Both the position numbers and the translations under genes were made by a program. A stretch of DNA of 64,000 nucleotides from Anaerolineales bacterium (GTDB taxonomy: Bacteria; Chloroflexota; Anaerolineae; Anaerolineales; UBA11858). Every line of letters begins with the position of its first letter. Position 1 is the first letter of the stretch. Location of the stretch: positions 22,323 through 86,322 of the forward strand of contig JAXHNK010000003.1 of assembly GCA_034520505.1 (NCBI GenBank), written 5' to 3'. This document shows, in pieces, positions 6,614-63,009 of this stretch. Under the pieces are notes generated by a model. That model was given only the letters and a program-made list of their open reading frames with translations. It was not told the DNA's origin and did not search any database.

Positions 6614-6645
6614 TTTTACGCTGCTCGTTGTCTTTGTATCCTTTC

Positions 6646-6799
6646 CAATTCAATCCGCTCACCAGCAGATATCGGGAGGTCGGGACATTTCTGTTCCCTA
6701 CCCTCACTTTCCCCGTTATCCACCAGGGAAGGGTCGGCCCCTCAACCATAGCAGCAATCACCACGTTCTACCTTAGGTTGAAGGTCTCGGATTCGATTG
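6646..6799 (-). ncRNA. candidate Moco (molybdenum/tungsten cofactor) riboswitch aptamer
   Basis: A long closing helix pairs 6788-6799 with 6646-6657 (CAAUCGAAUCCG / CGGAUUGAAUUG). Next come CCGAG, then hairpin ACCUU-CAACCU-AAGGU followed by AGA, then AACGGGGAAAGUGAGGG, and later GACCUCCCGA. These resemble my memory of conserved Moco-motif blocks (CCGAG, hairpin, GGAUAG, GGAAAGG, CCUCC). The context is a mobB/moeA operon. Not verified with a covariance model. Confidence 0.5.
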
Positions 6800-7021
6800 T
6801 CAGCTCAGATCTTTAAGATCTCGTTTCACATCCTTCACTTCTTCCAGCACATCCAGCTCTGTTTTCAGCTCATCCGTAAGGCTGCTGAAGTAGGCTTTCA
6901 CCTCGCGGATCAATCTCCCACATTTCCGGGCCGTGATCGCAATCCGCTCCGGTCCGAGGACAAACACCGCCAGCAGCAGGATCAACATCAGTTCCGGACT
7001 GCCGATATCAAATATTTCCAT
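6800..7021 (-). CDS. tatA: twin-arginine translocase subunit TatA/E
   Basis: Start moved to the internal ATG preceded by GGAGG. MEIFDIGSPELMLILLLAVFVLGPERI gives a TM helix and Gly-Pro hinge, followed by an amphipathic helix and an acidic tail. Confidence 0.8.
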   Translation of the reverse strand: MEIFDIGSPELMLILLLAVFVLGPERIAITARKCGRLIREVKAYFSSLTDELKTELDVLEEVKDVKRDLKDLS

Positions 7022-7838: not shown

Positions 7839-10800
7839 TTAAACTTTAGTGAGATTCACTCTGGTATCATAGAACGAAACACTACCGCCGACAGGATCCA
7901 CCATACAAGTATTATTTCGTAATGATGAATCCGTCCACATTGCAGCATTTGCGTGCACGCCTTTGGCTCTTCTGGGATCACCTTCAATAGTTTCACCATC
8001 AATATCAAAATCATCTGCACCGGTTGCCCAATGACCAAACCCGAGCACAAAGGATATTACTCCAGGTCGCATAGTTTCGGTCGGAATTACTTTACCAATG
8101 ATGTCTTTGGTTTTTCCATTTTTAAAATCCCATCTACCTTCGGTATTTGTAGCGCTTGTAATTCTAACCAGATCATCTTTTTCTAATTTTAATCGTCGAG
8201 CATCTTTAGGATTAATCATTATTCCATTTTCGGGCATAATCGGCTGCAGCCAGTATGCCCCAATTGTTCGGGATTTTGTCTGCGTAATTGTACGGTTCGT
8301 TATCATACTAAATTCATATCCCTCCGAAAGTTCCTCGACTGTTTCCTGGGCGTAATTCATTATCGGAAGATACTTTGCATAACCATAATAGGGTTTTCCT
8401 GTTGCAGCATATTTTTTTGTCGCAGTTTTTTCTTGATATAGATTTAATAAAGCCCCGAAACGGTGAGCCAGTTTATCACCTTCAAAGGATTTATTGTGGT
8501 CCTCATACCTGCCTCCGCGGTTCAAAATAAAAACTACCTTTCGCCAGTTGTCTTCTCCGACAACTTGTTTCCATCTTTGTTCGTCAAAAACAGATTTATC
8601 AAGATGCCTTCTTGCCTGGGAAAAGACCTCAAGCTCGCGGTCATCTGCCTCAGGTACTGCTGATTCTGTGTGAGCGAGATTCGCAATTGCTCTTAGATAT
8701 AGATCATCCGGTTTCGTAATATCCAACCCTTCACCGAGTGCGTTCTTCCCGAATGCTTTCAATCCAAGCTTTTTATTCAAGGCCATAAACATGGATTCCA
8801 GGCTGCACGGAATCTCTTCACCATCAACTTTCACTTTTTCAGGAATGGGTGAAATTACAGGCTGCCGCACATTTTCAACTTTTGCCGCCATATTGGGATG
8901 AGAACCCTGAAATTCCCAGCGTTCTAAATATGACAGATCAGGGAAGATGTAATCGGCATACATTGAAGTGGAACCAATGATGATGTCACTTGTAAAGAAA
9001 AGAGGAAGTTTATCAACGTCGGCAAGCACATCAATATTTGTATGTCCCGCGGGTAACGCATAGGTTGGAGCTCCCATATAAAAGAATAAGGCTTTTACGG
9101 GATATGGATATGCCTCCCCGATACTTGGAATTATTTCTTCATAAATATCTGATGACAGCGGATACCAATTTCTTTTTGCCGGATAACCTTCGAAGATCGT
9201 AGTCTTTTCGTAATCAACACCATGACGAATTGAGCTGATCCCAAAACCAGAAATCTTTTCATCTTGTTTCTTTAAGTCAAAGACACCGCCTTTCGAACCG
9301 TCGTATTTATACGTGGTTGCTTTGGACATTCCACCCGCCCAATCATAATTGCCAATCAACATATTGAGCGACATCCAACTTAGAACATTATAAAAACCAT
9401 TCGTGTGCTGTGCAGGTCCGCGGTGAATATCGACTGCGGCTTGTTTGCCATAGCTTGTTAATTCTTTTGCAACTTCAGTTACATCTTTCTCTTTAACACC
9501 GGCAATTTCACACCATTCGGTAATCGAATGTTCTTCCGAAGATTCTTTAAGAATTTGCAGCCCGGATTTTACTTTTACTTTGTTACCTTCCTTATCGCTA
9601 AGTTCTGTATCAACTAAAAGGTCACCGTAAACCGGGTTCTTTTCATCATTAGGATCAACCCAGGTTGGTTTACCGTTTACCATAACAACCAGGAATTTCT
9701 CCTCATACTCCGAACCGTTAAATATTCTTTTTTCAGGAGATTTCAAACCAAAATCGGCAGCACGTATCAATTTGCCCGGTTCTCCATCTTTTATTTCCAC
9801 AAGATAAGGCGCTGTTGTCCAGCTCGTTTCATTTGCAGCTTGAGCGGCTGCTTTATTTGCATTGCGGAGAAACTTTTCATCGTAACGTTTATTGCTAATG
9901 ATCCATTGAATCATTGCGAGAGCAAGCGCTGCATCCGTACCGGGTTTTAAGGGAAGCCATTGATCTGCTTTGCTGGCAAGTTTTGAGAATCTTGGATCAG
10001 CAACTGCAATTTTTGTGTATCCGCTCGCAAGATTTTTTGTCAATCTAACTGTTCGGTTTGTAGGACCGTAATTAGCTTCAAATAAGTTAGCTCCAACAAA
10101 TAAAACATATTTGGCGTGTTCGAGACTCGCCTGCCAATAAAATTTGCTGCCTCCCTGAAATTTACCCCCTTGATATTGCTCGCTAATTGCCTTGCAGGTA
10201 AAGTAGAGTGACCCCTGACATACTGTAGTGTGCCCGTGAAGATTCGTTGTTCCGAAAGCAGATTGAAATCTTTTAAAGAAATCTTTCCTTCCGTTTTTCA
10301 ATCTTCCGTACGCCATTACAAATTGATTATTCTTCGGTCCTAAATCAGGATGTTCAGGATCAATTAGCTTATCGAGATCCCCTTTATGTTTTTCCTTGAA
10401 TCTTTCTACCAGTCGTTTTTTCTCGCTTCCGTCTTTTTCCTCCCAAATTTCGTCAATGTCTTTAGCCATTTCCCGGGAAACTTTTGAATCGCGCAAAGCC
10501 ATAATATCTTTAAGGCCTTCAACAACCCTGTTCTCTTCACCCGGAACATCGGCAAATAGTTTTCCACCTTCAACTATTTCTGATATGGCTTGCTCAAAGG
10601 GAATTGCAACCCACGTATTTTCACCACGCTTACCGGCACGTTTCAATACTTTCCTTATTCGATAAGGATCATAAGCGATTTGGACACCGGCTTGTCCTTT
10701 TGGACAGAGTCCGCCATCAATCCTCGCGGCTTCATCAAGATCAGTCTTCATTGGAAGGTGCGGCACCATTGTCCAGGGGTTGTAAGGGTTCCCATCAATC

Positions 10801-11054
10801 TTGGCAAGAATACCATCTTGATTTTTTGCTTTCATTCCACAGCCGGTATTACAATTAAGACATACAGAATAAATAAAATTTTCCGGTTTGTTCAAAGTAT
10901 ATTCAGCATCGGGTCGTTTGCTATTGATTATTCCCTGCTGCGTTTGAGCCGATATTTTTCCCTTACCGAAAACAGTTGCCAGAACACCGTTTCCAAGTAA
11001 AGCACCTTTAGCCAGAAATTCTCTGCGGGATGAATCCTTTTTGTTGTTTTTCAT
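7839..11054 (-). CDS. Tat-exported bis-MGD molybdopterin oxidoreductase catalytic subunit, Psr/Phs/Ttr family (TtrA-like by size and gene order)
   Basis: 1071 aa. Twin-arginine signal SRREFLAKGAL, N-terminal FeS motif CLNCNTGCG...CPKG, and a probable Mo-ligand Cys in HGHTTVCQGS. Overlaps the NrfD gene by 4 nt. Substrate cannot be read from the sequence. Confidence 0.85.
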   Translation of the reverse strand: MKNNKKDSSRREFLAKGALLGNGVLATVFGKGKISAQTQQGIINSKRPDAEYTLNKPENFIYSVCLNCNTGCGMKAKNQDGILAKIDGNPYNPWTMVPHLPMKTDLDEAARIDGGLCPKGQAGVQIAYDPYRIRKVLKRAGKRGENTWVAIPFEQAISEIVEGGKLFADVPGEENRVVEGLKDIMALRDSKVSREMAKDIDEIWEEKDGSEKKRLVERFKEKHKGDLDKLIDPEHPDLGPKNNQFVMAYGRLKNGRKDFFKRFQSAFGTTNLHGHTTVCQGSLYFTCKAISEQYQGGKFQGGSKFYWQASLEHAKYVLFVGANLFEANYGPTNRTVRLTKNLASGYTKIAVADPRFSKLASKADQWLPLKPGTDAALALAMIQWIISNKRYDEKFLRNANKAAAQAANETSWTTAPYLVEIKDGEPGKLIRAADFGLKSPEKRIFNGSEYEEKFLVVMVNGKPTWVDPNDEKNPVYGDLLVDTELSDKEGNKVKVKSGLQILKESSEEHSITEWCEIAGVKEKDVTEVAKELTSYGKQAAVDIHRGPAQHTNGFYNVLSWMSLNMLIGNYDWAGGMSKATTYKYDGSKGGVFDLKKQDEKISGFGISSIRHGVDYEKTTIFEGYPAKRNWYPLSSDIYEEIIPSIGEAYPYPVKALFFYMGAPTYALPAGHTNIDVLADVDKLPLFFTSDIIIGSTSMYADYIFPDLSYLERWEFQGSHPNMAAKVENVRQPVISPIPEKVKVDGEEIPCSLESMFMALNKKLGLKAFGKNALGEGLDITKPDDLYLRAIANLAHTESAVPEADDRELEVFSQARRHLDKSVFDEQRWKQVVGEDNWRKVVFILNRGGRYEDHNKSFEGDKLAHRFGALLNLYQEKTATKKYAATGKPYYGYAKYLPIMNYAQETVEELSEGYEFSMITNRTITQTKSRTIGAYWLQPIMPENGIMINPKDARRLKLEKDDLVRITSATNTEGRWDFKNGKTKDIIGKVIPTETMRPGVISFVLGFGHWATGADDFDIDGETIEGDPRRAKGVHANAAMWTDSSLRNNTCMVDPVGGSVSFYDTRVNLTKV

Positions 11055-12214
11055 AATGACGTCCCTAATTTCTTTTGTGTGAAATAAGATAGAAGTTTTA
11101 TTCCAAAATAAACCAACGCAACTCCAAAAGCTCCGATAAACAGCGCAACTAAATACTCGTTTAACGTTGCTGAATAATCAAATCGTAATCTCTCATGGTA
11201 AAAAGCATCTTGTAAACCTTTTAATTCAGCGACCGCCTGACCAGGAACAAGTACGTTTAATCTTGCAGAAACAAATGTAACCGCCACTATAAAGGCACCT
11301 GTTCCCACAGTTTGATAAGTTTTACCTTTCCACAATACATAAAGAGCTATTAATCCACCGCCCAGATGAACAAACCAGAAGACCCACCAGAATGGTCCGA
11401 AAAGAATTAATTCAACTGCCTCTCTTATATGTGAATTTGGCGACCAAAAGACTAAACTGTATTCGGCAAATTCTGCCAGGAAGTAAAAAAGAATGCCGCC
11501 AATAATAACATAACGAAGCATTTTAAATGGCTGCTGTGATAAGTCAAACTCTTTATAATGAAGAAAAGTATAGACCAGTAATAAAACTGCGCCGCCAGAA
11601 GTAATAGCTGATACTAAAAACAATATCGGCAGCAGTGGTGAACTCCAAAACGGTTTAGCATCAACAACACCAAAGAAAGCGCCACTCTGGCTCGGGAAAG
11701 CTATGGAAAACATAAATGCCAAACCCATTAATGGAAGCATCCAGCGAGATTTGTCATGTAAATCGGTCTGCTTTTCTTTCTTCAGTGAAAGCCAAAATAA
11801 TCCAGCTGCACAACCGATAAACAAAGAATACATCCAGGCGTTAAACGCCATCATCGAACCAAAGTTTGGTGCATACAAAATGCGGGCAAATCTGAAAGGC
11901 TGCCCCAAATCTAACCAGATGGAGAACAACCCGGTTATCACTGCTGCGACTGAAACAACAAGTATGACCCGGAAATTCTCCCTGAATCCAGTAAGATCAA
12001 AAACATAACCAAGCGTTCCAATTGCAAACACACCGCCCGAAATTCCAACAAAATGGAAGTAAAGTGCAACCCACAATCCCCAGGGGACGTAACTTCCGTA
12101 GCCAGCTAACTTTTCTCCTGTTGCAAATTTCAAAATCAAACCAGCTAATCCGATGATAAAAACAATCAACCAAATACGTGATACATATTTATAAGTTTTT
12201 GTCAGCATAATCAC
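11051..12214 (-). CDS. NrfD/PsrC-family integral membrane quinol-interacting subunit
   Basis: 387 aa, about 9-10 TM helices, located between the FeS and catalytic subunits. Confidence 0.85.
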   Translation of the reverse strand: MIMLTKTYKYVSRIWLIVFIIGLAGLILKFATGEKLAGYGSYVPWGLWVALYFHFVGISGGVFAIGTLGYVFDLTGFRENFRVILVVSVAAVITGLFSIWLDLGQPFRFARILYAPNFGSMMAFNAWMYSLFIGCAAGLFWLSLKKEKQTDLHDKSRWMLPLMGLAFMFSIAFPSQSGAFFGVVDAKPFWSSPLLPILFLVSAITSGGAVLLLVYTFLHYKEFDLSQQPFKMLRYVIIGGILFYFLAEFAEYSLVFWSPNSHIREAVELILFGPFWWVFWFVHLGGGLIALYVLWKGKTYQTVGTGAFIVAVTFVSARLNVLVPGQAVAELKGLQDAFYHERLRFDYSATLNEYLVALFIGAFGVALVYFGIKLLSYFTQKKLGTSL

Positions 12215-12215
12215 C

Positions 12216-13124
12216 TCACAACAAATAAATTACTGTTGGCTTTGTGCCTTTTTCTTCGAGCAGCTTAACCTGATTCGGTTGACGTGCCATTTCCGTAACG
12301 AGTGAGTCGGGATCATTTGCATCGCCAAAATAATTTGCTCTTCCAATGCAAGTTGTAACACACATAGGAAGCTCACCTTCATTCAAACGATGCAAGCAGA
12401 AATGACATTTACGCGCATTACCCATTGGTGAATTATGTCCTTCACGATTCCAGCTTTTCCCATATTCATTGTTAGGAAGAGTTTCATAGGGTTGTAATTC
12501 AGGAGTATCTTCAGTGTAATATTCGCCGAAGTCGCTCGTTCTGGCGCCGTAAGGGCAGGCCGTTAAACAATAGCGACAGCCGATACATTTATCGTAATCA
12601 ATTTGGGTAATTCCGTCCGGTCTTTTCCATGTTGCATTAACAGGACAAACCGAAACACAAGAAGGATTTTCGCACTGCATACAAGGACGCGGAAAATACC
12701 TGAGCTGAGTATTCGGATATTCTCCCATTTGCTCCTCAACCACAGGACGGTAGACGACTCCGGGGGGAAGTTTATTTTCGGCAATACAGGCAACCGTGCA
12801 AGCGTGGCATCCAACACATTTTCTTGTATCAATGACCATCTTCCATTTTCTTTCTTCAACCGGCTTTGCCAGCGCTTTTTTTAATTCTGCTTGCATTCTG
12901 ATGAGAACATCAGATTCTTCGCTTACCTGGACCGATTTAAATTCAGGAATATCCCGGATTGTATCCGCGCCCGTTGGTGTTTCAGGGGGGGGACTTAATC
13001 TTGCTGCTGTAACCGCTGCAACAGATACAGCAACACCTCCCCCAACAACTCCAGCGGTCTTCAAAAAATCTTTTCTGGTAATTTCCTCGCTGATTGATTT
13101 TTTTTGTTTTGTTTCGTCTGCCAT
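12216..13124 (-). CDS. 4x[4Fe-4S] ferredoxin-type electron-transfer subunit with its own Tat-like signal
   Basis: 302 aa. The N-terminus has [15 protein letters not shown] (an RK variant of the RR motif). Four Cys clusters are present: [41 protein letters not shown]...CVTTC. Confidence 0.9.
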
Positions 13125-19152: not shown

Positions 19153-19408
19153 CCCGGATCCTGGGATTTGCAATCGGTGACCCCTTTGATCCCTCAGCGG
19201 CGGTGCTATTCTGAGAGGCATTTCTGCCTTGGCTGCGTTCAAGCCTGGGATTACAACCCGCAGATATATTTATTCTCAAACTGAACGGAGTGAGATATCC
19301 TTCTGAAGAAATTTTGATCCTTACCCTGCTGCAGTGGATATCTTTCCCTTCCCAGGTTATGATTAAATGATCTTCCCCAACCTGTACTGATCTTTTCAGG
19401 AGTTCTCG

Positions 19409-20146
19409 ATGTCTGATTCTGCCTTGATGTGGATCGAAATTATTTTCAACATCTCTTACCTGACAGTAATCTGGTGGCTGGTCATCACCATGTTACTCCA
19501 TAGATCTGCAGTCAAGGAGGCAGAGCAAAGAACCGCGAAGCTGTTCATCCTTGCCTTTGGTTTACTGGCTCTGGGAGACACCGGACATGTCGGCTTCCGG
19601 GTAGTGGCTTTCTTGAAGGGAGATCTCAGCACCCGGGTTGATTTTCTGGGCTTTTCGGGAAGCCTGGTCGGGTTGGGCGCCCTGGCTACCGCCTTCACGG
19701 TAACCCTTTTTTACATAGTGATGCTGGAAATCTGGAGGACCCACTTTGCTTCCCAACACGGACTTTTTTCTGCCCTACTGCTGTTTGCAGGGCTGGTTCG
19801 CCTGGGATTGATGACCCTGCCCTTCAACCAGTGGGACCGAGTGGTGCCGGTTCAGCCCTGGTCCACGATCCGGAATATCCCCCTGATGATCCTGGGTCTG
19901 GGAGCCGCTGCCCTGCTCCTGATCGACGGTATCAAAGCTCAAGACCGCACTTTTATCGCCATTTCCGCTTCCATCCTGTTCTCTTACGCCTGCTACATTC
20001 CCGTGATCCTCTGGGTACATCAGGTTCCTCTGCTGGGAATGCTGATGATTCCCAAAACACTGGCCTATCTGGTGGTCGGACTTCTAGCCTACCGGGAGCT
20101 TTATCCCCGGCCGCCGTTGGCCGGAGAAGCCCAGGAACTAAATTAG
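19409..20146 (+). CDS. multi-pass membrane protein, unknown function
   Basis: 245 aa, about 7 hydrophobic segments. No motif recognised. Confidence 0.55.
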   Translation: MSDSALMWIEIIFNISYLTVIWWLVITMLLHRSAVKEAEQRTAKLFILAFGLLALGDTGHVGFRVVAFLKGDLSTRVDFLGFSGSLVGLGALATAFTVTLFYIVMLEIWRTHFASQHGLFSALLLFAGLVRLGLMTLPFNQWDRVVPVQPWSTIRNIPLMILGLGAAALLLIDGIKAQDRTFIAISASILFSYACYIPVILWVHQVPLLGMLMIPKTLAYLVVGLLAYRELYPRPPLAGEAQELN

Positions 20147-20228
20147 GTAATCAGTGATCAGGTTATTTCTTTCCGATCGCACCGGAAACTGTAATATACA
20201 AAAACTCATAGAGAGGAACTCATCCGCT

Positions 20229-20600
20229 TCAGGACAGAACCAGGTCCTGGATGCGGTGGATGGCCCGGTTGGTTTCCCGGCGGTAGGATGTTTCCGGCGG
20301 CACCAGCACACCGAGGATAATATAATCCCGGCCCAGATCCACCGGCCGGCAAACCCAGTGCACCCGGTCATTCGCCCGGATCGTGACCTCGTCCACCGGG
20401 GCCATTTCCAGCTCACCCCTGATTTGCGTGCTGACCTGACCGAGCAAAGCAACCATCGCTGTGTCCACTTCCCCGTTGGGCAGTTGGGGAGCATTGGCAA
20501 TGGGCAGGCCCTCATCTGTTGCCAGCACCGAGCGTTCAAAACCCCCGCTCTGATTCATCTCTGCCAACACCTGCTGAAACTGATTGAGGAAATTTTTCAC
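20229..20600 (-). CDS. Roadblock/LC7 (MglB-like) domain protein
   Basis: Start set to the GTG preceded by AGGAGA, 13 nt after the GTPase stop. The Roadblock pattern is ...GGFERSVLATDEGLPIA...VALLGQV.... Confidence 0.7.
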   Translation of the reverse strand: MKNFLNQFQQVLAEMNQSGGFERSVLATDEGLPIANAPQLPNGEVDTAMVALLGQVSTQIRGELEMAPVDEVTIRANDRVHWVCRPVDLGRDYIILGVLVPPETSYRRETNRAIHRIQDLVLS

Positions 20601-20613
20601 TGAATTCTCCTGG

Positions 20614-21210
20614 TCACGATCGGTTTCCGATACGATCCTGAGCATGGTGCACGACATGATTGATAATTTTCTTCAACCCCTCGACCACACCCGTGCCCTC
20701 TGTAGCCACCGTTTCATAGGTGGGCACCCCTTTCATCCCTAACTTTTCTTTCATCACCAGCACCGGGACGATATCCGTTAAATCCCGCTTATTGCACTGG
20801 AGGATGATGGGCATATTCTGCGGTTGAAACCCCAGGGAGACCAAATCCTGTCCCAGGTCTTTAACCGCCCGGATGTTATCCCGCAAACGTTTCTGCTGGG
20901 AGTCAGCCACGAAGACAATTCCATCAACTCCCTTGAGCACCAGCTTGCGGGTGCTGCGGTAATAAATCTGACCGGGAACTGTATAGAGGTTAAAACGGGG
21001 TTTTAACCCCGCTACTTTTCCCATTTCAAACTGCATGAAATCGAAATAAAGGGTGCGGTCCTCCCGCGTCTTGAGAGTGACCATTTCACCCCGGCGTTCG
21101 GGGTTGATCCGGGTATGAATGTACTGTAAAGAGGTAGTCTTCCCACTGAGTGACGGCCCGTAGTAGACTATTTTCAGGTTAATTTCACGCAGCTTCCAGT
21201 TGATGAACAT
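20614..21210 (-). CDS. MglA-family Ras-like small GTPase
   Basis: 198 aa. P-loop GPSLSGKT, switch II TVPGQ (the MglA-type T-x-x-GQ in place of DxxGQ) and NKRD. Confidence 0.85.
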   Translation of the reverse strand: MFINWKLREINLKIVYYGPSLSGKTTSLQYIHTRINPERRGEMVTLKTREDRTLYFDFMQFEMGKVAGLKPRFNLYTVPGQIYYRSTRKLVLKGVDGIVFVADSQQKRLRDNIRAVKDLGQDLVSLGFQPQNMPIILQCNKRDLTDIVPVLVMKEKLGMKGVPTYETVATEGTGVVEGLKKIINHVVHHAQDRIGNRS

Positions 21211-21224
21211 ACCCTAGATTCCCA

Positions 21225-21713
21225 TCAGTCATCCAAAAAAGTGTTTTCCAACTCCTGGGTCAATCCGCGGGTAAAATCATCGGGGTTAATGGGACCGGGT
21301 TCGCCCATAATTTGCTCAAAATCTTCCGTAAGCGGTCTGAGCTGGTCCACTGCCCGCTTGGCAAACAATCGAACCAAGCCGATCGGGGTTTCCGACCTGA
21401 AGATCACAATCAAAATAAAACTACCGACAATGTTATGCAGATAGATGCTCTTGGATTCACCCTCATGAAAGAAGGAACCGTGCGGGTCGTCTTCGCCGAT
21501 CCTCCGGGCCAATTCGCCCATAGCCGCCACATCTCCCGCAGCCAGGGCCGCCACAGTGGCCGGTTCGCCCTTTTCCATGATACCCTGAGCAGAAATTAAC
21601 TGCCCGCTGATGTCCGCCAGGAGAATACACTCTGTGCGGGCTTTCTCCATCAGATGATCCAGAATATCATCAATTTTTTGTAATAACTGTTCAGGTAATT
21701 CTAATCCGGCCAT
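21225..21713 (-). CDS. Roadblock/LC7 (MglB-like) domain protein with C-terminal extension
   Basis: 162 aa. Pattern CILLADISGQLISAQG...AALAAGDVAAMGELARRIG.... Confidence 0.75.
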   Translation of the reverse strand: MAGLELPEQLLQKIDDILDHLMEKARTECILLADISGQLISAQGIMEKGEPATVAALAAGDVAAMGELARRIGEDDPHGSFFHEGESKSIYLHNIVGSFILIVIFRSETPIGLVRLFAKRAVDQLRPLTEDFEQIMGEPGPINPDDFTRGLTQELENTFLDD

Positions 21714-21786
21714 AACTAACTCCTCTCTGCTTCAAGAAAGCAGGTGGTTCGATCCCGGAAAAATTCCGGACAAACATCCGGTTAAA

Positions 21787-22590
21787 TCACCGCCGCAGAC
21801 GCTCAATCGCTGCTTTCAGGCTGGTCCGCATCCGTTCGATGGATTGAGCCAGTCGCTCCATATCCCCTCCCACACTGACATCAATGGGTACATCCAGGTC
21901 ACCGCGGCTGATGGCGTCCGAAGCTTCTACCAGATGGGAGATGGAGTAAATCATCCGGCCGGAGACCCGGAGGGCGACGATGACAGCCACCACGATAAAG
22001 ACACCGACCACCAAACTGAGCACGCTCAAGAAAGTGTACACTATAGACAGCCTGGCAGCCCGCTCCCGTTCCCGATCGGTTAATTCCCGCAAGCGGTTGA
22101 GCTGGGTCTCATCCAGTTCATCCATGGCGGGGAACAATGTGTTCCTGGCAAAAGTCCTGGCATCCCCGAGCTTAATTACAGCCGCAGTATTGTCATCTGG
22201 ATTTGCCTTATAGGCAGCGATCACATCATCCAGGATGGCGGAATAGGTCCGATGTGCGTCAGCGACCGCAGCAACCCCCTCCGGATTGGAATCTTCCAGC
22301 ACCCGGACCACTTCTTCCCAGCGCTGGTCATACTCCTGCCGGGATTCTTCAATCAAATTCAACTGTCCGCTGAATCCAGTGAGCACATACTGGCTGACAC
22401 CGATCCTTTCCTCCAGGACTGTACGTTCCAGGTTATTGGTGGCCAGCACCGCATCCTGAAGTTCAATCAAATCGGTCGTTATATCCAGGTTGGTCCGGAG
22501 GAAATTCACACTCACCAGCGAGGTGGCTACCAGCAAGACAACCACGAAGCCCATGGCGATGATGTATTTTCGTAAATTAGCGAGTTTCAT
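21787..22590 (-). CDS. membrane sensor: TM - helical extracytoplasmic domain - TM - HAMP, no output domain
   Basis: 267 aa with two TM segments. The C-terminal HAMP-like region is ISHLVEASDAISRGDLDVPIDVSVGGDMERLAQSIERMRTSL, and the protein ends 12 aa later. Confidence 0.7.
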   Translation of the reverse strand: MKLANLRKYIIAMGFVVVLLVATSLVSVNFLRTNLDITTDLIELQDAVLATNNLERTVLEERIGVSQYVLTGFSGQLNLIEESRQEYDQRWEEVVRVLEDSNPEGVAAVADAHRTYSAILDDVIAAYKANPDDNTAAVIKLGDARTFARNTLFPAMDELDETQLNRLRELTDRERERAARLSIVYTFLSVLSLVVGVFIVVAVIVALRVSGRMIYSISHLVEASDAISRGDLDVPIDVSVGGDMERLAQSIERMRTSLKAAIERLRR

Positions 22591-22652
22591 ATTTCAGTCT
22601 CCTCGTCAAATGCAGCGCCCAAAAGTTCACCAGTTTCATTTCTGTTCCCGAT

Positions 22653-23450
22653 CTAGGAAGCATTTAATTCATTCAACATTGTGCCCTGAAAACGGGTTCG
22701 CTGTTCTTCATTCTGGATTTCCAGGCTGATTCTTTCCACTAATTCAGCCGCTTTTCGCCGGGGAAAATTTTTCCGGGTTTCACCCAGCATGCTGATTTCA
22801 TCTTCAATGATCACCGGGGCCAAGGGTCCCATAATTTCAGTAAATTCTGACTGCAGCCGCTCAAAAAAACTTTCACCCATCAATTCCTGCTGGGCGACGT
22901 TGGTCCGGGCTTCTTCCTGCAGCAGCCCGGCCGTGACCAGGCTGTAAACCATCTTTGCAGTGTCAAATTCATCCATTTCCAGGATCTCAGCAATGTCCAG
23001 CACACTGCGTTTCCCATCCACCTGGGCCAGCACCTGCCACTCCCGGGGTTTCAGGCTGACGGTGCTGGTGGACCCTGAAGGAGAGAGAGAAAAAACCATA
23101 TCTGTGGTGGGAACCACCTTTTTGATATCCTCCCACTGCTCGGCCCGCCGACCGGCTTCCAGAAGCATCTGCTCGGTGGTCAGGCTGATAGATTCTTCGG
23201 GCGCGTCGGCTTCCGGGAAAAAACGCAAATCCCCTTCCACCCAGGCCATCAAACTGTAAACCGCTGCCTCCCCCATCTGGGAGCCGGTTACCGCATGAAC
23301 CAGATTGCCGTCCTGCAGATAGACTTCCCCAGTTTTTCCGTCGTGTTCCAATTCCAGCCGTCCCGAACGGCGGCTGGAACTGAGCACCTTTAATATATCC
23401 AGGAGCGGTAATTGAGACAAATTACCTTTCAATACTTCCGCCATGACCAT
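22653..23450 (-). CDS. PATAN (DUF4388) domain protein
   Basis: The N-terminus LKGNLSQLPLLDILKVLSSSRRSGRLELEHDGKTGEVYLQDGNLVHAV...GEAAVYSLMAW..GDLRF is the DUF4388 pattern. Confidence 0.75.
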   Translation of the reverse strand: MVMAEVLKGNLSQLPLLDILKVLSSSRRSGRLELEHDGKTGEVYLQDGNLVHAVTGSQMGEAAVYSLMAWVEGDLRFFPEADAPEESISLTTEQMLLEAGRRAEQWEDIKKVVPTTDMVFSLSPSGSTSTVSLKPREWQVLAQVDGKRSVLDIAEILEMDEFDTAKMVYSLVTAGLLQEEARTNVAQQELMGESFFERLQSEFTEIMGPLAPVIIEDEISMLGETRKNFPRRKAAELVERISLEIQNEEQRTRFQGTMLNELNAS

Positions 23451-23494
23451 TCTCCTTCCTGTGAAACTGTAATAATTATAATCTCAAATAGATT

Positions 23495-23935
23495 TCAAGG
23501 GATGAATAAATCCCCGTTCTCCGGCAGGTTAGTTTCCACAAAGATATCGGGGAGCTCCACATCCCGGCTGACAGCATGAGACTCCAGCTCCTTCTGGATC
23601 TTCCCGTCCTGTTCCCAGCGGCTGGAAACCACGTTCATCGTCATCCTGAGCAGCGAGATATCCAGCCCGGGGTCACAGATCACAATCAGAGCTGAATGTC
23701 CCAGATCCCTCACCACCAGCCGGGACCCCTGATAAATAAAATCTAATTCTTCAGCAGGATCTCCCCAGGTCTCCAGGCCCAGCAAAACCTGGATCACATG
23801 GAGGCTGATCAATCCCAACTCCTTGCCAGTCAGTTCCAGGGGAGGATCGACAGCGATCACTTCTCCGTGGTTGTCAGCCAGAAAACAGCCGTAGACGTTT
23901 TTTACCTGTTTGATCTGATGCAGCCCTGCTTGCAC
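23495..23935 (-). CDS. Roadblock/LC7-like protein (divergent)
   Basis: 146 aa. VYGCFLADNHGEVIA...SLHVIQVLLG...LVVRDLGHSALIVICD resembles the Roadblock alpha-beta-alpha pattern. Confidence 0.55.
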   Translation of the reverse strand: MQAGLHQIKQVKNVYGCFLADNHGEVIAVDPPLELTGKELGLISLHVIQVLLGLETWGDPAEELDFIYQGSRLVVRDLGHSALIVICDPGLDISLLRMTMNVVSSRWEQDGKIQKELESHAVSRDVELPDIFVETNLPENGDLFIP

Positions 23936-23955
23936 AATACCATCCTTACCTGTGA

Positions 23956-24966
23956 TTAAGTAAACATCCCCGGCAGGAGCCTGTCCAGCCGGAATTTTTT
24001 GATCAATTCTTGATTCTGATCGACGAGAGGATCAACCTGGCGTTTAACCAGGCCGTAAATATCCCGGTTGGGCAGCTCTTGATCCAGGGTATTGAGGGCG
24101 CCTTCCAACCCCTCTGCCAACCCCCGGCTGAACTCCTTATGGGGCTCACCCCGGTAATCAATCTCCCCATCCTGATAGAAGAACTTGGCTGCAAAGGGAT
24201 CTAAAAAGGGATATTCATCAGCGTTCTCAATCAAATTATCCTTCAAGATGTTCAAAAAATGGCCCTCATCCGTCAAGCGGTCGACCACCCTTTCAGCCGC
24301 CCCCAGGACCTGTCCCCAGAGTTCAAGCTGCTGGGGAAAATCAAAACTGGCCATAATCTCTTCGCTTTCTTCCATGGATTCTTCCAGGCCGGCCTGATAG
24401 ACGTTAAAAACCGCTCCCTGCAGGGAAGCTTGCTCAATAATGCGGGGCAGCATGTTCTTCCCGGTGATATCTTCTCCCCCGGCTGAAAACAGGCTGTTGA
24501 TCACTTTACCGGCCAGCAAAAAGATAAAACCTGTGGTTTGATCGCCCTCGAGGTGAACCTCGATATAACCGGTGTGATCATCACCCTGCAGTTTATTAAT
24601 TAATCCCTCCAGGGAGGTGAAATCCGTGCTCAAATTCCGGTAAACGATCTCACTGCGGGCGATGCTGGAAAGCATGGTCACCATCTCCCCATCCACCCGG
24701 TAAACGTTTATCGCCCCATCCTTCTCCAGGGATTTATCGATCACCCGTTGTACCGCTTCCTGGCCGGTGAAAGTGCTGCCGTCAATCTCTTCCACGGCGT
24801 TGACCACGTTCCCGTTGTCCATCAACAAAAGACCATCATACTCCCAGAAGACAACCTCAACACAGCCGGTGAAATCATTCTCCTCCAGGTTTTTCAGCAG
24901 TTCACTGACATCAGCAAATGAAGTGTTGAGATTTTTGTACACCGGATTATTTTTAGGGAATATCAT
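23956..24966 (-). CDS. protein with two tandem PATAN-like repeats
   Basis: There is an internal duplication: Y[KR]NL[NS]T.F...L...L....TG..EV...G....G.V.N...TG......GA.NVY is present twice (aa ~10-110 and ~110-200). Confidence 0.6.
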   Translation of the reverse strand: MIFPKNNPVYKNLNTSFADVSELLKNLEENDFTGCVEVVFWEYDGLLLMDNGNVVNAVEEIDGSTFTGQEAVQRVIDKSLEKDGAINVYRVDGEMVTMLSSIARSEIVYRNLSTDFTSLEGLINKLQGDDHTGYIEVHLEGDQTTGFIFLLAGKVINSLFSAGGEDITGKNMLPRIIEQASLQGAVFNVYQAGLEESMEESEEIMASFDFPQQLELWGQVLGAAERVVDRLTDEGHFLNILKDNLIENADEYPFLDPFAAKFFYQDGEIDYRGEPHKEFSRGLAEGLEGALNTLDQELPNRDIYGLVKRQVDPLVDQNQELIKKFRLDRLLPGMFT

Positions 24967-24968
24967 GG

Positions 24969-26057
24969 TTATCCTCCTCGATGATTTGACCGGTATCTTT
25001 TCATCGTGGTCTGAAAGGAATTCCAGACCGCATCCAGGGATGAACGGGTTGAGAGCTGACAGTGAATGATCTCTGAACCCCAGATGACGAGCAAAGTTAA
25101 TGAATTTTTCCCCTTCAGGACCAGCCGCTTCGGGTCTCCTCCATTGATGATCTCACCCAGGGAGATGGCCTGACGGACGAGAAATTTTGTCAGTTCCGGC
25201 TGCTGTTCGGGCAGGCTTTCCCGCTCCACCACCAACAGCTCTCCCTCCAGGGAGCAAATCATCACCCCTTCAACTCCAGAAATCCTGGTCAACGCTTTCG
25301 CTATCCGCTCATGTTCACTAACCTGAGGAACGTTTTTTTCCTCCGCAGGTTCTTCTTCCCAATCCGGATCCCAACCTTCACCGGTCTCGTCAATGCGGCG
25401 CATACCCTCCATCAGGAGTCCCGACCACCCGGTATTGATCGTCCTCACGGGAGAGGAAACGTCCATTTCCAGCTGGAACGTTCCACTTTCCCAGCTGAGC
25501 AGCTCGTACACCGCCTGATTGCCGCGGAGTTCGCCCACTTCTGAGTGAACTACTTCGCCGTGATTAAAATAGATCAAACCTTCTTTGCCCTGACCGCGTA
25601 TCCGTAAACGGGATTGATTGCGCTCCTCGCAGTTGATCTGAATAATGCTGGCCAGGCTCATCATCCTTAAATCCCCCTGCAGCCCGGATTCTTCCCTGCT
25701 GACAATTTTCTCCACGGTTTCCAGCAACGTCTGATTATCAAAAGGTTTTTCCAGATATTCCACAGCCCCCAACCGGAAAGCGCGAACGGCGGTTTCTTTC
25801 TCCCCAAAAGCAGTCATGATCACCACCTTCGCCCCGGGGTCATAGGCCAGGATTTCTTCCAGCACCTGCAGACCGTCGGTGTCCGGCAGCATCAAGTCTA
25901 CCAGGGCCAGATCAAAAGCATCCTGCCGGTAGCGTTCTACTGCCTGATTACCTCCCAGCACACTGACCACCTGATAACCGCTCTCCTCCAGAATCCGGGA
26001 CAGCACATAGGACAGACTGGTGTCATCTTCAACTAAAAGAATGGATCGCTCAGTCAC
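24969..26057 (-). CDS. response regulator: REC + PATAN (DUF4388) + Roadblock-like C-terminal domain
   Basis: REC motifs LLVEDD, LALVDLMLPDTDG and KPF. The middle region LQGDLRMMSLASIIQINCEERNQSRLRIRGQGKEGLIYFNHGEVVHS..GNQAVYELLSW is PATAN. The C-terminus ISGVEGVMICSLEGELLV... is Roadblock-like. Confidence 0.8.
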   Translation of the reverse strand: MTERSILLVEDDTSLSYVLSRILEESGYQVVSVLGGNQAVERYRQDAFDLALVDLMLPDTDGLQVLEEILAYDPGAKVVIMTAFGEKETAVRAFRLGAVEYLEKPFDNQTLLETVEKIVSREESGLQGDLRMMSLASIIQINCEERNQSRLRIRGQGKEGLIYFNHGEVVHSEVGELRGNQAVYELLSWESGTFQLEMDVSSPVRTINTGWSGLLMEGMRRIDETGEGWDPDWEEEPAEEKNVPQVSEHERIAKALTRISGVEGVMICSLEGELLVVERESLPEQQPELTKFLVRQAISLGEIINGGDPKRLVLKGKNSLTLLVIWGSEIIHCQLSTRSSLDAVWNSFQTTMKRYRSNHRGG

Positions 26058-26886
26058 TGCGGGGCACTCCCCTTCTCATCCCTGATCCGGTCAACAATTG
26101 GCCTCGATATCCCCTCAACTGACCCCGGTCCAAATGGAGATCAGCCGGGTGTTCGTCCTGTCCGCCAGGTTGAATTAAATGAACTCCAGCGGCGGTTAAA
26201 AAATATTCTATCATGGGCAGGGGTGAATCAACCTTTCCAGAAATTAAGGTAGAAACTACCTGACCGACCCCGGTTTTTAGGAGGCGGGAAGGGAACCGTT
26301 CCTGAAAATCAAACCCATCCCGGCCGGCTTTTTAGGCTGTTTTTATCCTGCCTGACAGATGGATGTTCACCCTGCTTCGATTATACCCCAGCAGAGATGG
26401 TCAACATGATCATTTTCCCCACTTAACAAAACTAATAAATCCGCCGAAAGCCCCGGCTGCGCGGGAGAGAGATTTCTGAACAGGTTTTCACCCGGACTGA
26501 AGCCCGGAATTTACATTTGGTGAGCGGGGCTGGTTCCGGAAAGGTTAACCGCCGGCTGCCTCCGGCAGCATCCCCCGGCGCGGGTGGAGGTGAATCCTGG
26601 CCCCGGGGTTAAACCCAGAAAGGTGGACGGGGATCCAGCCCACCCACCTTTCTCACGGAAGAAGAAAATTAATGAAGAAACGTCTTTCCTGACAGTTAAC
26701 AGTGTAGAAGATTTCCGGCTCTTTGAAAAGCTACCCGGGAACCCTTTCTTACCCTCCTCCAGGAGGGGTTAGGACCGTCCCGGCAAGGGATGCGGAGGCC
26801 CTTGATTTGAGATAAGATGGACTTAGTTTACCTGAACCCCTCACCCCCCTGCCCGGCTTGCAATCTCCATCAAGCTGACGTATAGT

Positions 26887-28473
26887 ATGTTTATGCTGAA
26901 GGCCTGGAAACATTTCACCGATCAATTCAATCGGCTGCGCTGGAAAATGACCGTCAGCTATTTCACCGTCACGGTGCTTGCCCTCCTGCTGGCAGAGTTG
27001 ATCGTAATTGCGGGTATCTCCGTCCGCATCGTCCATGACGCCCGGGTGACCAAGGAAGAAATTATCGCAGAATTAGCTTCTGATGAGTTTGCAGGGGTTG
27101 ACGAACGGCGGCTGGCAGAAAAACTGGGGATCAACCGGCTGAACATCTCGCTGGGCGGATACGTGAACATCGGCAGCAGTTTTCTTTCCCCTACTCCTCC
27201 CAATATTGCCGGTTTGAAAAACTTTATCAGCGAATTTTCGACGAACGTGGTCAATATCAAACCCATTGAGCTGGGTAACTTCATCATCAACGTCAGCAAC
27301 ACCAACATCCTGTCCATCTATTACCTCGATGCCCAGGGTCAAATTATCGGCACCATCCCCCCGGGACTGACGGAAAGTTTCCCCGGTGAAGAGACCTTTG
27401 ATCCCCGGGTCATCAAGGGTTTGAGCGAACCTTACGCAGCCGCCCTTTCCGGTTCCCGGGATTATCAGGAGCTGATCAAACGGATCGAAGACAATGTCCT
27501 GATCGGAGCTGTCCCCATCCCGGATCAGAACAACCCCGGGGAAACGGTGGGCGTGCTGGCTTTTGAGCATAAATCCCGCCTGACAGAAATCCTGCAGTGG
27601 GAGCAAATATCCCGCCAGATCGGAATGAGCCTGATTGTGATCACCGGCCTGGCCGGAATATTCGGAATCCTTTTTGGATTCCTGAACGCCCGGTTCATCA
27701 CCTCCCGTTTGGATCAGGTCCGCGAAGCCTCCCGTTCCTGGAGCCGGGGAGATTTTTCGGTGCTGATCGATGACCCCCAACAGGATGAGCTCGGCAGCCT
27801 GGGGAAAACGCTGAACAACATGGCCGTACGCATGGAAAACTTGCTCGAAGAACGGCAGGAGATTTCAGTGATGGAAGAACGCAACCGGCTGGCCCGGGAG
27901 CTTCACGACAGCGTAAAGCAGCAAACATTTGCCGCTTCCGCCCAGTTAGCTGCTGGACGATCCCGGCTGAAAGACCAGGATCAGCAGGCTGAAGCCAATA
28001 TCCAGGAAGCAGAAAGATTGATTGACAGCGTGCGCCGGGAGTTAACCGACCTAATTCACGAACTCAGGCCGGCCAACCTCAAGGGAAAAGGATTGACAAC
28101 CGCTGTCCGGGGGTATATACAAGAGCTGGAAGGACAGATGGATATCCCCATCAGCCTGCGGGTTCAGGGTGAACGGGCCATCCCCCTGGAGGTCGAACAG
28201 ACCCTGTTCCGGATCATCCAGGGAGCGATGGCCAACGTCGCCCGCCACAGCCAGGCCGCCAGGGCAGAAATCCGGATTGCGTACAGCGAGGACCGGGTAA
28301 AGATCAGGATCCAGGATGATGGAGTAGGGTTTAACGCCAAACAACAGAACTTTGGAATCGGTCTGAAATCCATTCAGGAACGGGTGGGTTTGATAGCTGG
28401 AGAACTGGATCTGCGCAGCCGACCCGGCCAGGGGACAACCATCGAGGTTAGCGTGCCGCTCAGAGAAGACTAA
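26887..28473 (+). CDS. sensor histidine kinase (TM, HAMP, HisKA_3, HATPase)
   Basis: H-box ERNRLARELHDSVKQQ with ATP-binding motifs DDGVGF and GIGLKSIQERV. Confidence 0.9.
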   Translation: MFMLKAWKHFTDQFNRLRWKMTVSYFTVTVLALLLAELIVIAGISVRIVHDARVTKEEIIAELASDEFAGVDERRLAEKLGINRLNISLGGYVNIGSSFLSPTPPNIAGLKNFISEFSTNVVNIKPIELGNFIINVSNTNILSIYYLDAQGQIIGTIPPGLTESFPGEETFDPRVIKGLSEPYAAALSGSRDYQELIKRIEDNVLIGAVPIPDQNNPGETVGVLAFEHKSRLTEILQWEQISRQIGMSLIVITGLAGIFGILFGFLNARFITSRLDQVREASRSWSRGDFSVLIDDPQQDELGSLGKTLNNMAVRMENLLEERQEISVMEERNRLARELHDSVKQQTFAASAQLAAGRSRLKDQDQQAEANIQEAERLIDSVRRELTDLIHELRPANLKGKGLTTAVRGYIQELEGQMDIPISLRVQGERAIPLEVEQTLFRIIQGAMANVARHSQAARAEIRIAYSEDRVKIRIQDDGVGFNAKQQNFGIGLKSIQERVGLIAGELDLRSRPGQGTTIEVSVPLRED

Positions 28474-28492
28474 GTCAACGGAGAAATATATC

Positions 28493-29152
28493 ATGACTGA
28501 CACAATCACCGTTTTACTTGTGGATGACCACGAAGTGGTGCGCAGCGGCGTGCGGGCTTTTTTGGACGCTCAACCGGACTTCAAGGTGATCGGGGAAGCG
28601 AAATCCGGAATTGAAGCAGTTGACCTGGTCCGCCAACACATACCCGATGTGGTCTTGATGGACCTGGTTATGGCCAAAATGGACGGGGTTGAAGCCACCC
28701 GTCAGGTGAAGAACCTCAGCCCCCGGACAAAGATAGTGGTCCTTACTTCCTATCACGAAGACGAACATATTTTCCCTGCCCTGCAGGCGGGAGCCATTTC
28801 CTATATCCTCAAAGACATCAAGATGGAAAAGTTAGCCGACGCCATCCGCAGGGCAGCCGAAGGAGAAGCCACCCTCGATCCTCAGGTGGCCTCGCGCGTG
28901 ATCCAGGAGCTGCACGGCGCTAAACAGGACAAACTCAACCCCTACACCGAACTCACCGACCGGGAGATGGAAGTGCTCAAGCTGATCGCCAGCGGAATGT
29001 CCAACAGCGATATCGCCGACAAACTGGTCATCAGTGTCAACACAGTCAAAGGTCATGTCAGCAACATCCTCACCAAGCTTCAGCTGGCTGACCGCACCCA
29101 GGCGGCAGTTTACGCCTGGGAGCAGGGCATCGTACGCAGGAAATCCAGCTGA
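28493..29152 (+). CDS. NarL/LuxR-family response regulator
   Basis: REC (LLVDDHEVVR, VVLMDLVMAKMDG) plus LuxR HTH (LTDREMEVLKLIASGMSNSDIADKLVISVNTVKGHV). Confidence 0.9.
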   Translation: MTDTITVLLVDDHEVVRSGVRAFLDAQPDFKVIGEAKSGIEAVDLVRQHIPDVVLMDLVMAKMDGVEATRQVKNLSPRTKIVVLTSYHEDEHIFPALQAGAISYILKDIKMEKLADAIRRAAEGEATLDPQVASRVIQELHGAKQDKLNPYTELTDREMEVLKLIASGMSNSDIADKLVISVNTVKGHVSNILTKLQLADRTQAAVYAWEQGIVRRKSS

Positions 29153-62824: not shown

Positions 62825-63009
62825 AAATCGTCCTTTATAATGATTAATTTTTTCCCGGCTGTTTTGGCTAATTTAACCCGGCGCCGGTCCCGGGGATGAC
62901 ATCCGATTTCCCAGAGCGCTCCACCAACATGAAAACGCTAGCTGCACCACTAAACGTAAGCAGTGGAGAGAACATCCGTTTTAGTTTCTACCAATAAAAG
63001 AAAATGGGC

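Follow-up and report, generated by a model that had tools for sequence, protein, structure and literature searches.

A conserved eight-gene operon centred on an MglA-type GTPase in Anaerolineales: a candidate membrane-to-GTPase signalling module

Overview of the operon

A 64,000-nucleotide stretch of DNA from an uncultured, filamentous-type Anaerolineales bacterium (contig JAXHNK010000003.1), referred to as the window, contains a row of eight genes at 20229-26057. All are intact open reading frames (ORFs) on the minus strand and are numbered g1 to g8 in the direction of transcription. The eight genes very probably form one functional module centred on the Ras-like GTPase MglA. They are not a chance juxtaposition, since dozens of genomes and metagenome contigs retain the set. 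The best explanation, which we consider fairly probable, is an MglA/MglB switch with its own regulators and adaptors and with two inputs, a phospho-receiver and a sensor lacking a kinase, probably steering a polar surface machine. The full mechanism, with motility or polarity as its output, is more tentative and falls slightly short of an even chance.

The genes and their predicted products are as follows.

g1, 24969..26057, minus strand: 362 aa, GTG start; receiver (residues 6-115), PATAN/DUF4388 domain (127-224) and C-terminal Roadblock domain (~250-350)
g2, 23956..24966, minus strand: 336 aa; double PATAN-like/DUF2226-like protein with repeats at ~8-102 and 106-193 and a helical C-terminal domain at 194-330
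g3, 23495..23935, minus strand: 146 aa; stand-alone divergent Roadblock/LC7 protein, from ortholog profile and predicted fold
g4, 22653..23450, minus strand: 265 aa; PATAN/DUF4388 domain (8-107), winged-helix-like middle (~133-181) and C-terminal module of ~75 aa (~188-262)
g5, 21787..22590, minus strand: 267 aa; sensor with two transmembrane (TM) segments, an extracytoplasmic helical (CHASE3-like) domain of ~145 aa and a terminal HAMP domain, no output domain
g6, 21225..21713, minus strand: 162 aa; MglB, Roadblock GTPase-activating protein (GAP) of MglA, full length including the C-terminal helix region
g7, 20614..21210, minus strand: 198 aa; MglA, group-1 Ras-like GTPase, from PDB matches and invariant motifs
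g8, 20229..20600, minus strand: 123 aa from the GTG at 20600; second divergent Roadblock protein directly 3' of mglA, from ortholog profile

The gaps from g1 to g8 are 2, 20, 44, 62, 73, 14 and 13 nt when g8 starts at the GTG at 20600. The ORF listing with this start agreed with the original prediction of eight minus-strand genes separated by 2-73 nt. The GTG lies 14 nt past the g7 stop, is the start in the gene call on the identical public contig, and is the start with which orthologs concur. The longest ORF of g8 extends to 20657, the first in-frame ATG, and from there would overlap mglA by 44 nt. A GGAG-type ribosome-binding (Shine-Dalgarno-like) motif was present 5' of all eight genes. The G+C content of the operon is 0.52, which is unremarkable compared to its surroundings.

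Conservation of the gene set

A scan from MglA with one genome per species gave 80 loci, and all eight families were surveyed by tblastn and hidden Markov models; individual loci are given by L numbers. Close MglA homologs came from Anaerolineales or Chloroflexota metagenome-assembled genomes (MAGs). DNA of the window was also present in salt-pan and microbial-mat metagenomes. Every locus with an MglA of at least 67% identity had the same gene set, colinear except for a shift of g5 in three. Fourteen loci were fully colinear (L003, L005, L007-L010, L012-L016, L020, L021 and L054). In L002, L004 and L019 g5 alone was relocated, to behind g8. Four further loci were cut by contig ends and were colinear as far as they reached. 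The original prediction had named a lack of conserved gene order as the mark of chance juxtaposition; in related genomes the order or the set was kept.

Identity to the window was 69-82% for MglB, 67-74% for MglA, 56-66% for g4, 49-59% for g2 and 44-56% for g8. It was 36-63% for g5, 37-48% for g1 (32% in the split copy of L003) and 33-40% for g3. The g1 ortholog of L003 lies in two ORFs (L003:5142-6092, residues 2-126 and 219-297), which is a frameshift or an assembly error in this long-read MAG. Flanking genes were not conserved as a block. An HtrA gene, for example, is behind g8 in most genomes and elsewhere in this window.

A metagenome scan from g2 served as the reciprocal test. It gave 80 loci with g2 identity of 39-73%, and contigs of at least 7 kb were evaluated (n = 33). 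MglA and MglB were present with g1, g3 and g4/g5 in 30 of the 33, and the remaining three contigs end too early. Three variant arrangements were seen: a second MglA/MglB pair (L142, L143), MglA shifted upstream beside a REC-MglB-like gene (L147-L150; REC, receiver), and the order g3, (g4), HAMP, g1, g2, MglB, MglA (L154-L161).

More distant clusters held related parts in other combinations. In L024, a distant Anaerolineae locus, a hybrid histidine kinase, an OmpR regulator, a REC-Roadblock protein and a REC-PATAN-Roadblock protein stand in a row. Clusters of this type continue with one to three extra Roadblock proteins, MglB, MglA, g8 and a further receiver protein. L038, L043 and L045 encode a PATAN-Roadblock protein, Roadblock proteins and one or two TM-HAMP proteins. 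L048 (deep Chloroflexota, MglA 55%) has orthologs of g2, g3 and g8 and a g5 of dCache_1-HAMP type, and its cluster also contains an extra Roadblock protein, an SCP2 protein, a REC-Ras fusion and an OmpR-type regulator. In other phyla in the scan mglB-mglA stood alone.

Since the gene set outlasts permutation of its order while its neighbors change, functional coupling of the genes is indicated. The competing view is that three independent units (the PATAN/REC genes, a HAMP protein on its own and the group of mglB, mglA and g8) have stayed side by side through shared descent and not through joint function. The solitary mglB-mglA of other phyla, the mobility of g5 within the cluster (L002, L004, L019) and a terminator-like hairpin between g5 and g6 would fit it. 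However, at least three gene orders retain the set, as do loci in which g2 identity has fallen to 39-45%, while flanking genes reshuffle. The parts are also linked by fusion: g1 joins PATAN to Roadblock, and in L038, L043 and L045 the C-terminal module of g4 is joined to Roadblock. RNA contigs bridge g4/g5 and g5/g6. Simple syntenic juxtaposition is therefore considered very improbable and a single MglA-centred module is preferred.

Three observations were made on variant clusters. Receiver-Roadblock fusions were common upstream of mglA in other Anaerolineae (L022-L033 and L037, e.g. L024:5053-6201), with Roadblock parts matching the MglB profile at E ~1e-19 to 1e-22; from their sequences such fusions would be a direct phospho-input to an MglB-like domain. 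At L048:3450-4385 a receiver is fused to a Ras-family (non-MglA) GTPase (Pfam Ras 4e-40), giving two different small GTPases in the cluster. Two mglA genes per cluster were found in L028, L038, L142 and L143, with two mglB-like genes also in L038, L142 and L143, which suggests duplication of the core switch.

GTPase core

Of the Ras-like switches of bacteria, MglA/MglB is understood best. Knowledge of it comes nearly all from Myxococcus, where it is debated how signals reach it.

The g7 product aligned over ~185 residues to MglA of Thermus thermophilus (3t12_A, E 6e-59) and of Myxococcus xanthus (2e-57), and was ~58% identical to these solved proteins. The motifs on which the original prediction had based its MglA call, the P-loop GPSLSGKT, TVPGQ and NKRD, were invariant in 22 of 22 orthologs, as was the intrinsic Arg finger. 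TVPGQ is at residue 77, and EDRT at 50-53 places an Arg adjoining the switch-I/G2 threonine. Group-1 MglA proteins are defined by a G3 motif TVPGQ replacing DxxGQ and by an intrinsic Arg beside the G2 Thr (Wuichet & Sogaard-Andersen 2015, PMC4316618). Both features are found in g7, which is thus assigned to group 1 and is predicted to be catalytically complete.

The g6 product matched NCBIfam MglB (1.3e-16) and Pfam Robl_LC7 (3.8e-6). Its ortholog profile matched Myxococcus xanthus MglB (6izw_B) across residues 1-162 at 8.9e-30. The gene adjoins mglA at a distance of 14 nt. On these matches g6 is predicted to encode the cognate MglB of g7. Stimulation of MglA GTP hydrolysis by MglB dimers is described in PMC3199381.

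Additional Roadblock proteins

The original prediction linked the GTPase to four Roadblock-containing and three PATAN-containing proteins, and domain searches gave the same numbers. All its domain calls, including the weakest ones (the g3 Roadblock and the g2 double PATAN-like assignment), were upheld by Pfam, ortholog profiles and models, that of g2 on borderline scores.

In g1 the receiver (Pfam REC 2e-27) and the PATAN domain (DUF4388 1.7e-21, 77 bits against a cut-off of 25) were clear. D54, T82 and K104 of the receiver were conserved in 16 orthologs, and it is predicted to be an intact phospho-acceptor. The C-terminus as a single sequence gave a weak Pfam Roadblock match (0.052). A profile of the last 115 residues, built from orthologs, matched the Roadblock proteins 7f8f_A (1.2e-6) and 7f8m_A (5.1e-6) in the PDB.

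No Pfam match was found for g3. Its ortholog profile matched 7yh1_D best in the PDB (1.1e-4), and the top 14 matches were all Roadblock/LC7. An AlphaFold2 (AF2) model, for which the protein search gave four relatives, had the Roadblock strand-helix topology at moderate confidence (predicted local distance difference test, pLDDT, 67). The top 50 Foldseek matches of this model were all Roadblock, LAMTOR, MglB or LC7 proteins (best E 1.6e-5). Orthologs of g3 are ~125 aa and the window copy carries a 20-aa tail.

The g8 product gave a Pfam Robl_LC7 value of 0.017 as a single sequence, while its ortholog profile matched 7f8f_A (8.8e-4) and 9jue_D (2.4e-3) and the L048 ortholog matched Robl_LC7 at 5.5e-6. 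The gene is directly after mglA in nearly all Anaerolineae loci. Alignment by hhalign of g3, g8 and the g1 C-terminus, all from shallow ortholog alignments, to the MglB alignment was not significant, and that of g3 to g8 was suggestive (55%). The three are assigned as Roadblock domains from their profiles, and g3 from its model as well. Roadblock domains are dimeric platforms for small GTPases (PMC3747258 and PMC10933270).

Four Roadblock domains per one GTPase and one membrane protein would also suit a membrane-anchored platform with Ragulator-like logic that brings MglA to a membrane site and controls some process other than motility, for instance the identity of septa or filament ends, growth of the envelope or remodelling of membranes. 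LAMTOR2 was among the Roadblock profile matches. Cultured Anaerolineae are described as non-motile filaments, which would favor such a process. Elsewhere MglA homologs serve other polar processes, such as Bdellovibrio predation (PMC3983030). However, the LAMTOR matches were weak (E ~0.4 by sequence), this MglA lacks the Rag-type Roadblock C-terminal domain, no LAMTOR1-like wrapping scaffold was evident and the locus has no pointer to division or envelope synthesis. A platform of this kind is thus judged unlikely, and the likeness to Ragulator stays an analogy only, as the original prediction had put it. In the preferred MglA/MglB switch the same Roadblock proteins would act on MglB and MglA.

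PATAN proteins

The g4 product matched Pfam DUF4388 at 2.6e-24 (86 bits against a cut-off of 25), and hhalign found the PATAN domain of g1 homologous to that of g4 (98.4%, E 4e-15). Both are a short form, covering 98-100 residues compared to the 122 positions of the Pfam model. By these matches g1 and g4 are assigned PATAN (DUF4388) domains. The middle of g4 gave winged-helix matches to HTH_47 (1.4e-5, below the cut-off) and HTH_27 (0.098). The C-terminal region is DUF8082 in precomputed Pfam, and its last ~75 residues are the most conserved portion of g4.

Evidence for two PATAN domains in g2 was borderline by score. Pfam DUF2226 matched over two stretches (6e-9), and the DUF4388 score of 25.6 bits barely exceeded the cut-off (25), which none of the stretches reached individually. 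PF14332 was precomputed on most g2 homologs. The hhalign match of g2 to the g4 PATAN was weak (E 0.0075 over 38 columns). The AF2 model (pLDDT 82.7) had two similar alpha/beta repeats and a helical domain, and would support the label. A fold search of the model against the PDB gave no meaningful match (TM-score ~0.1), and no solved PATAN structure was found for comparison. A sliding clamp was dropped as a candidate, as the PCNA-like fold matches were noise at this score. The g2 family had 912 representatives at E<=1e-3 and 243 at E<=1e-30 among 1.84 billion. Ten that were looked up were nameless or "hypothetical protein", and no mention of DUF2226 was found in the literature searched.

A cyanobacterial study (bioRxiv 10.1101/2021.06.11.447907) found that the PATAN domain binds both PilB1 and PilC and suffices for the reversal of phototaxis. 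The same study argues that the DNA-binding role predicted earlier for PatA-type regulators is unlikely.

Membrane sensor and its proposed coupling to g4

The original prediction placed both a transmembrane sensor and a phospho-receiver in the set; the receiver is that of g1 with its conserved D54/T82/K104, and the sensor is g5, in which two TM segments and a HAMP domain were found. The hydrophobic/TM segments are at residues 3-34 and 178-218. CHASE3 matched between them (8e-5, below the Pfam cut-off), and HAMP matched at residues 209-259 (3e-10). The stop codon is 8 residues beyond the HAMP match. No HisKA or HATPase domain was found in g5 by Pfam. A methyl-accepting chemotaxis protein (MCP) was rejected, as there is no MCP signalling domain and only N-terminal parts of MCP models matched. 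The L048 ortholog has a dCache_1 (ligand-binding) sensor with HAMP and adjoins a gene for a solute-binding protein.

The C-terminal module of g4 occurs in other forms: fused to Roadblock (L038, L043, L045), nearly alone (L043:8284-8478) and accompanied by the winged-helix-like region only (L048:6599-7069). A g4-type module is directly upstream of the TM-HAMP gene in L038, L043, L045 and L048, as in the window. Since no output domain follows HAMP in g5 or its relatives, this module is the probable cytoplasmic partner of the sensor, as gene adjacency and domain shuffling suggest. Conserved linkage and domain fusions likewise suggest that g5 signals to the GTPase.

These features allow a kinase-independent transmembrane route in which a HAMP-ending, chemoreceptor-like sensor would act on the DUF8082-type C-terminus of g4, then on the PATAN/Roadblock platforms and finally on the nucleotide state or location of MglA. 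As an account of the operon it is possible but rather doubtful. If true, it would be a bacterial receptor-to-small-GTPase pathway built on multiple Roadblock dimers. It would parallel eukaryotic receptor-GTPase and Ragulator-type logic and be distinct from two-component and Che pathways.

Expression and flanking genes

Metatranscriptome contigs from four runs (salt lakes and a microbial mat) were 90-99% identical to the operon and covered parts of all eight genes. They spanned the junctions g4/g5, g5/g6, g6/g7 and g7/g8, and no contig covered the flanks at 19400-20160 or 26004-26765. Such coverage would be expected if the eight genes are transcribed together.

The upstream flank is an 829-bp non-coding region followed by divergent genes for a HAMP-HisKA_3 kinase and a NarL-type regulator.

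26058..26886, minus strand: non-coding region of 829 bp 5' of g1, common with the divergent histidine-kinase gene; putative operon promoter region

The ORF listing contained no operon-strand ORF of at least 60 aa in 26058..26886, which is presumed to be the operon promoter region. A sigma-70 consensus scan of its minus strand gave no convincing site. Such scans were uninformative, since terminator- and promoter-like consensus sites were not commoner than in shuffled sequence. The downstream flank holds a convergent membrane protein and a P-type ATPase, unrelated to the operon.

The divergent pair at 26887-29152 (plus strand) encodes a HAMP-HisKA_3-HATPase kinase and a NarL/GerE-type response regulator. 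It was in the equivalent position in seven other genomes, all with MglA of at least 67% identity, and the regulator was 82-83% identical, above the conservation of MglA itself. The kinase could be the one for the g1 receiver or merely a conserved neighbor.

An alternative reading is a transcriptional output. A conservon-like system could act on a developmental or stress programme through the winged-helix g4 or another regulator, as is thought for the conservons of Streptomyces. The HTH matches of g4, the NarL-type regulator and kinase in the window and the seven other genomes, the OmpR-type regulators within clusters L024 and L048 and the lack of a motility gene nearby are in line with this, and a membrane HAMP protein with Roadblock and a small GTPase parallels CvnA-CvnB-CvnD (PMC4316618). 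However, the g4 HTH match is below the Pfam cut-off, g5 has no kinase domain, no CvnC/DUF742 protein is encoded, and MglA is of group 1, the motility/polarity type with the intrinsic Arg finger, not of group 2. The authors of the PATAN study also judge a DNA-binding role of PatA-type regulators unlikely. A transcriptional output is accordingly regarded as improbable compared to the MglA/MglB polarity-type switch.

Proposed function

In the preferred explanation MglA would cycle between GTP and GDP, with the g6 MglB dimer as its GAP, as in Thermus and Myxococcus. The g8 protein, g3 and the g1 C-terminus would be extra dimeric platforms that tune or localise MglB/MglA, as MglC does in Myxococcus. 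The g5 sensor would detect an extracytoplasmic cue and pass it on by direct contact with the C-terminal module of g4, direct contact being proposed because g5 has no kinase or MCP output. Phosphorylation of g1 by a kinase would be a second input. For this phospho-input speak the retained D54, T82 and K104 of g1 and the hybrid histidine kinase in the row of more distant Anaerolineae clusters. The PATAN domains may be docking or output elements that couple the switch to a membrane-associated polar machine, by analogy with PatA-type regulators and PilB1/PilC. This machine would most likely be of pilus or gliding type and would set the direction or polarity of filament surface movement or attachment.

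MglA and MglB have a role in polarity and type IV pili in Thermus. In Myxococcus they control polarity and type IV pili. The Roadblock paralog MglC and the receiver protein RomR tune and localise the switch there (PMC4719450 and PMC9481161).

Several points weigh against this explanation. The annotation of the 64-kb window included no pilus, gliding or chemotaxis genes, and the winged-helix match of g4, weak as it is, could mean a DNA-binding output instead. Cultured Chloroflexales have only Tad-type pili (PMC7332563). The nature of the output machine is a guess, given these Tad pili and the described non-motility of cultured Anaerolineae noted above, and the output is the weakest step of the mechanism. 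The link from HAMP to g4, suggested by adjacency and domain shuffling as its sole basis, is weakened by L002, L004 and L019, in which g5 is behind g8 and not beside g4. The terminator-like hairpin in the g5-g6 gap (21781-21766) speaks against a single operon, although sites of this kind are not commoner than in shuffled sequence. The metatranscriptome contigs, on which transcription across the row depends, are short, unstranded and from related strains, and may in part derive from DNA.

An anti-phage defence system was also considered and rejected. PADLOC gave only cross-matches of the g1 receiver and no match for the other seven proteins.

Other features of the window

Further features of the window were noted outside the operon. 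At 60762-63726 (minus strand) is a full-length homolog of the MtmB family (monomethylamine methyltransferase) without an in-frame stop (Pfam 1e-100, positions 1-450 of 450). Its neighbors are a B12-binding corrinoid protein and a GntR/UTRA regulator, and by its sequence the locus resembles a methyltransferase system of the non-pyrrolysine kind, here in a genome of the Chloroflexota.

A molybdenum-cofactor riboswitch (Rfam RF01055, 47 bits) was found at 6623-6804 (minus strand), 5' of an ABC-transporter ATPase gene and near MoeA and MobB genes and a molybdopterin oxidoreductase cluster. The region 8001-12000 has a G+C content of 0.41 compared to 0.53-0.59 in its flanks and spans a Psr/Phs-like cluster with a 1071-aa molybdopterin oxidoreductase and an NrfD membrane subunit. 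The gene for a 4Fe-4S protein is just outside the drop, at 12216-13124. This low-G+C stretch may be acquired DNA.

A diguanylate cyclase with a VUPS membrane sensor (38226-39611, minus strand) and an HD_5 (HD-GYP-like) protein (44649-45986, minus strand) suggest that cyclic-di-GMP signalling is also encoded in this part of the genome, with no link to the operon established.

Significance and comparison with known systems

One conserved operon offers a whole candidate pathway comprising sensor, receiver, adaptors, GAP, GTPase and extra Roadblock proteins. It does so in a different phylum, where naturally occurring variants differ in domain combinations and in the order of genes. It is a compact, testable parts list for passing a membrane signal to a small GTPase without a kinase. 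It also gives context to three uncharacterised families, the DUF2226-like double-PATAN proteins, the DUF8082-type module and the HAMP-only sensors. Anaerolineales are abundant in mats, sediments and sludge and are poorly studied, and the operon is a candidate for their cell polarity or surface behavior.

The Myxococcus xanthus polarity module (MglA, MglB, MglC, RomR/RomX and RomY, with Frz input) shares a group-1 MglA, a full-length MglB of Myxococcus type, extra Roadblock paralogs (compare MglC), a receiver protein (compare RomR) and input from a signalling system. It differs in that its partners are scattered over the genome, while all are in one operon here. The receiver is fused to PATAN and Roadblock in the operon, which also has three PATAN proteins and a kinase-less TM-HAMP sensor. 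RomX, RomY and Frz genes were not seen in the locus. Thermus thermophilus MglA/MglB (3t12/3t1q) provides the best sequence match of g7 and the same mglB-mglA adjacency, but is a simple two-gene unit without the six accessory genes.

The actinobacterial conservon also has a HAMP sensor, a Roadblock protein and an MglA-family GTPase in one operon (CvnA, membrane histidine-kinase-like with HAMP; CvnB, Roadblock; CvnC, DUF742; CvnD, group-2 GTPase), and both systems imply membrane-to-GTPase signalling. The present operon differs by its added PATAN proteins and receiver. Membership in the conservons was rejected because g5 has no kinase domains, no CvnC-type protein was found by Pfam and the GTPase is of group 1 and not group 2.

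PatA-type regulators (PixG, PixE, LsiR and PatA) combine PATAN with a receiver as g1 does, and in both PATAN probably serves for output or docking. In g1 the order is reversed with the receiver N-terminal, a Roadblock domain is added, and the context is MglA and not a Che-like taxis operon. PatA-type regulators are defined by an N-terminal PATAN, a C-terminal receiver and only these two domains, so g1 is not one of them. Ragulator-Rag likewise has several Roadblock domains around small GTPases at a membrane, with similarity at the level of the Roadblock superfamily; the Rag C-terminal Roadblock and the LAMTOR1-like scaffold are the parts missing here.

No functional treatment of MglA in Anaerolineae and no paper describing the operon were found in the literature search, in keeping with the original prediction that the architecture had not been functionally described. 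Its proposal of a candidate input-to-GTPase pathway gained support from the conserved linkage and domain fusions, but co-location of PATAN with MglAB has been known since 2006 and 2015. The genome-context association of MglA/MglB with PATAN goes back to Makarova et al. 2006, as cited in PMC4316618 and in bioRxiv 10.1101/2021.06.11.447907. The same association, together with group-1 MglAs coupled to two MglB-like genes, was given by Wuichet & Sogaard-Andersen 2015 (PMC4316618). The operon is a conserved variant of the MglA/MglB switch that extends this known theme, and the MglAB-PATAN link itself is not new.

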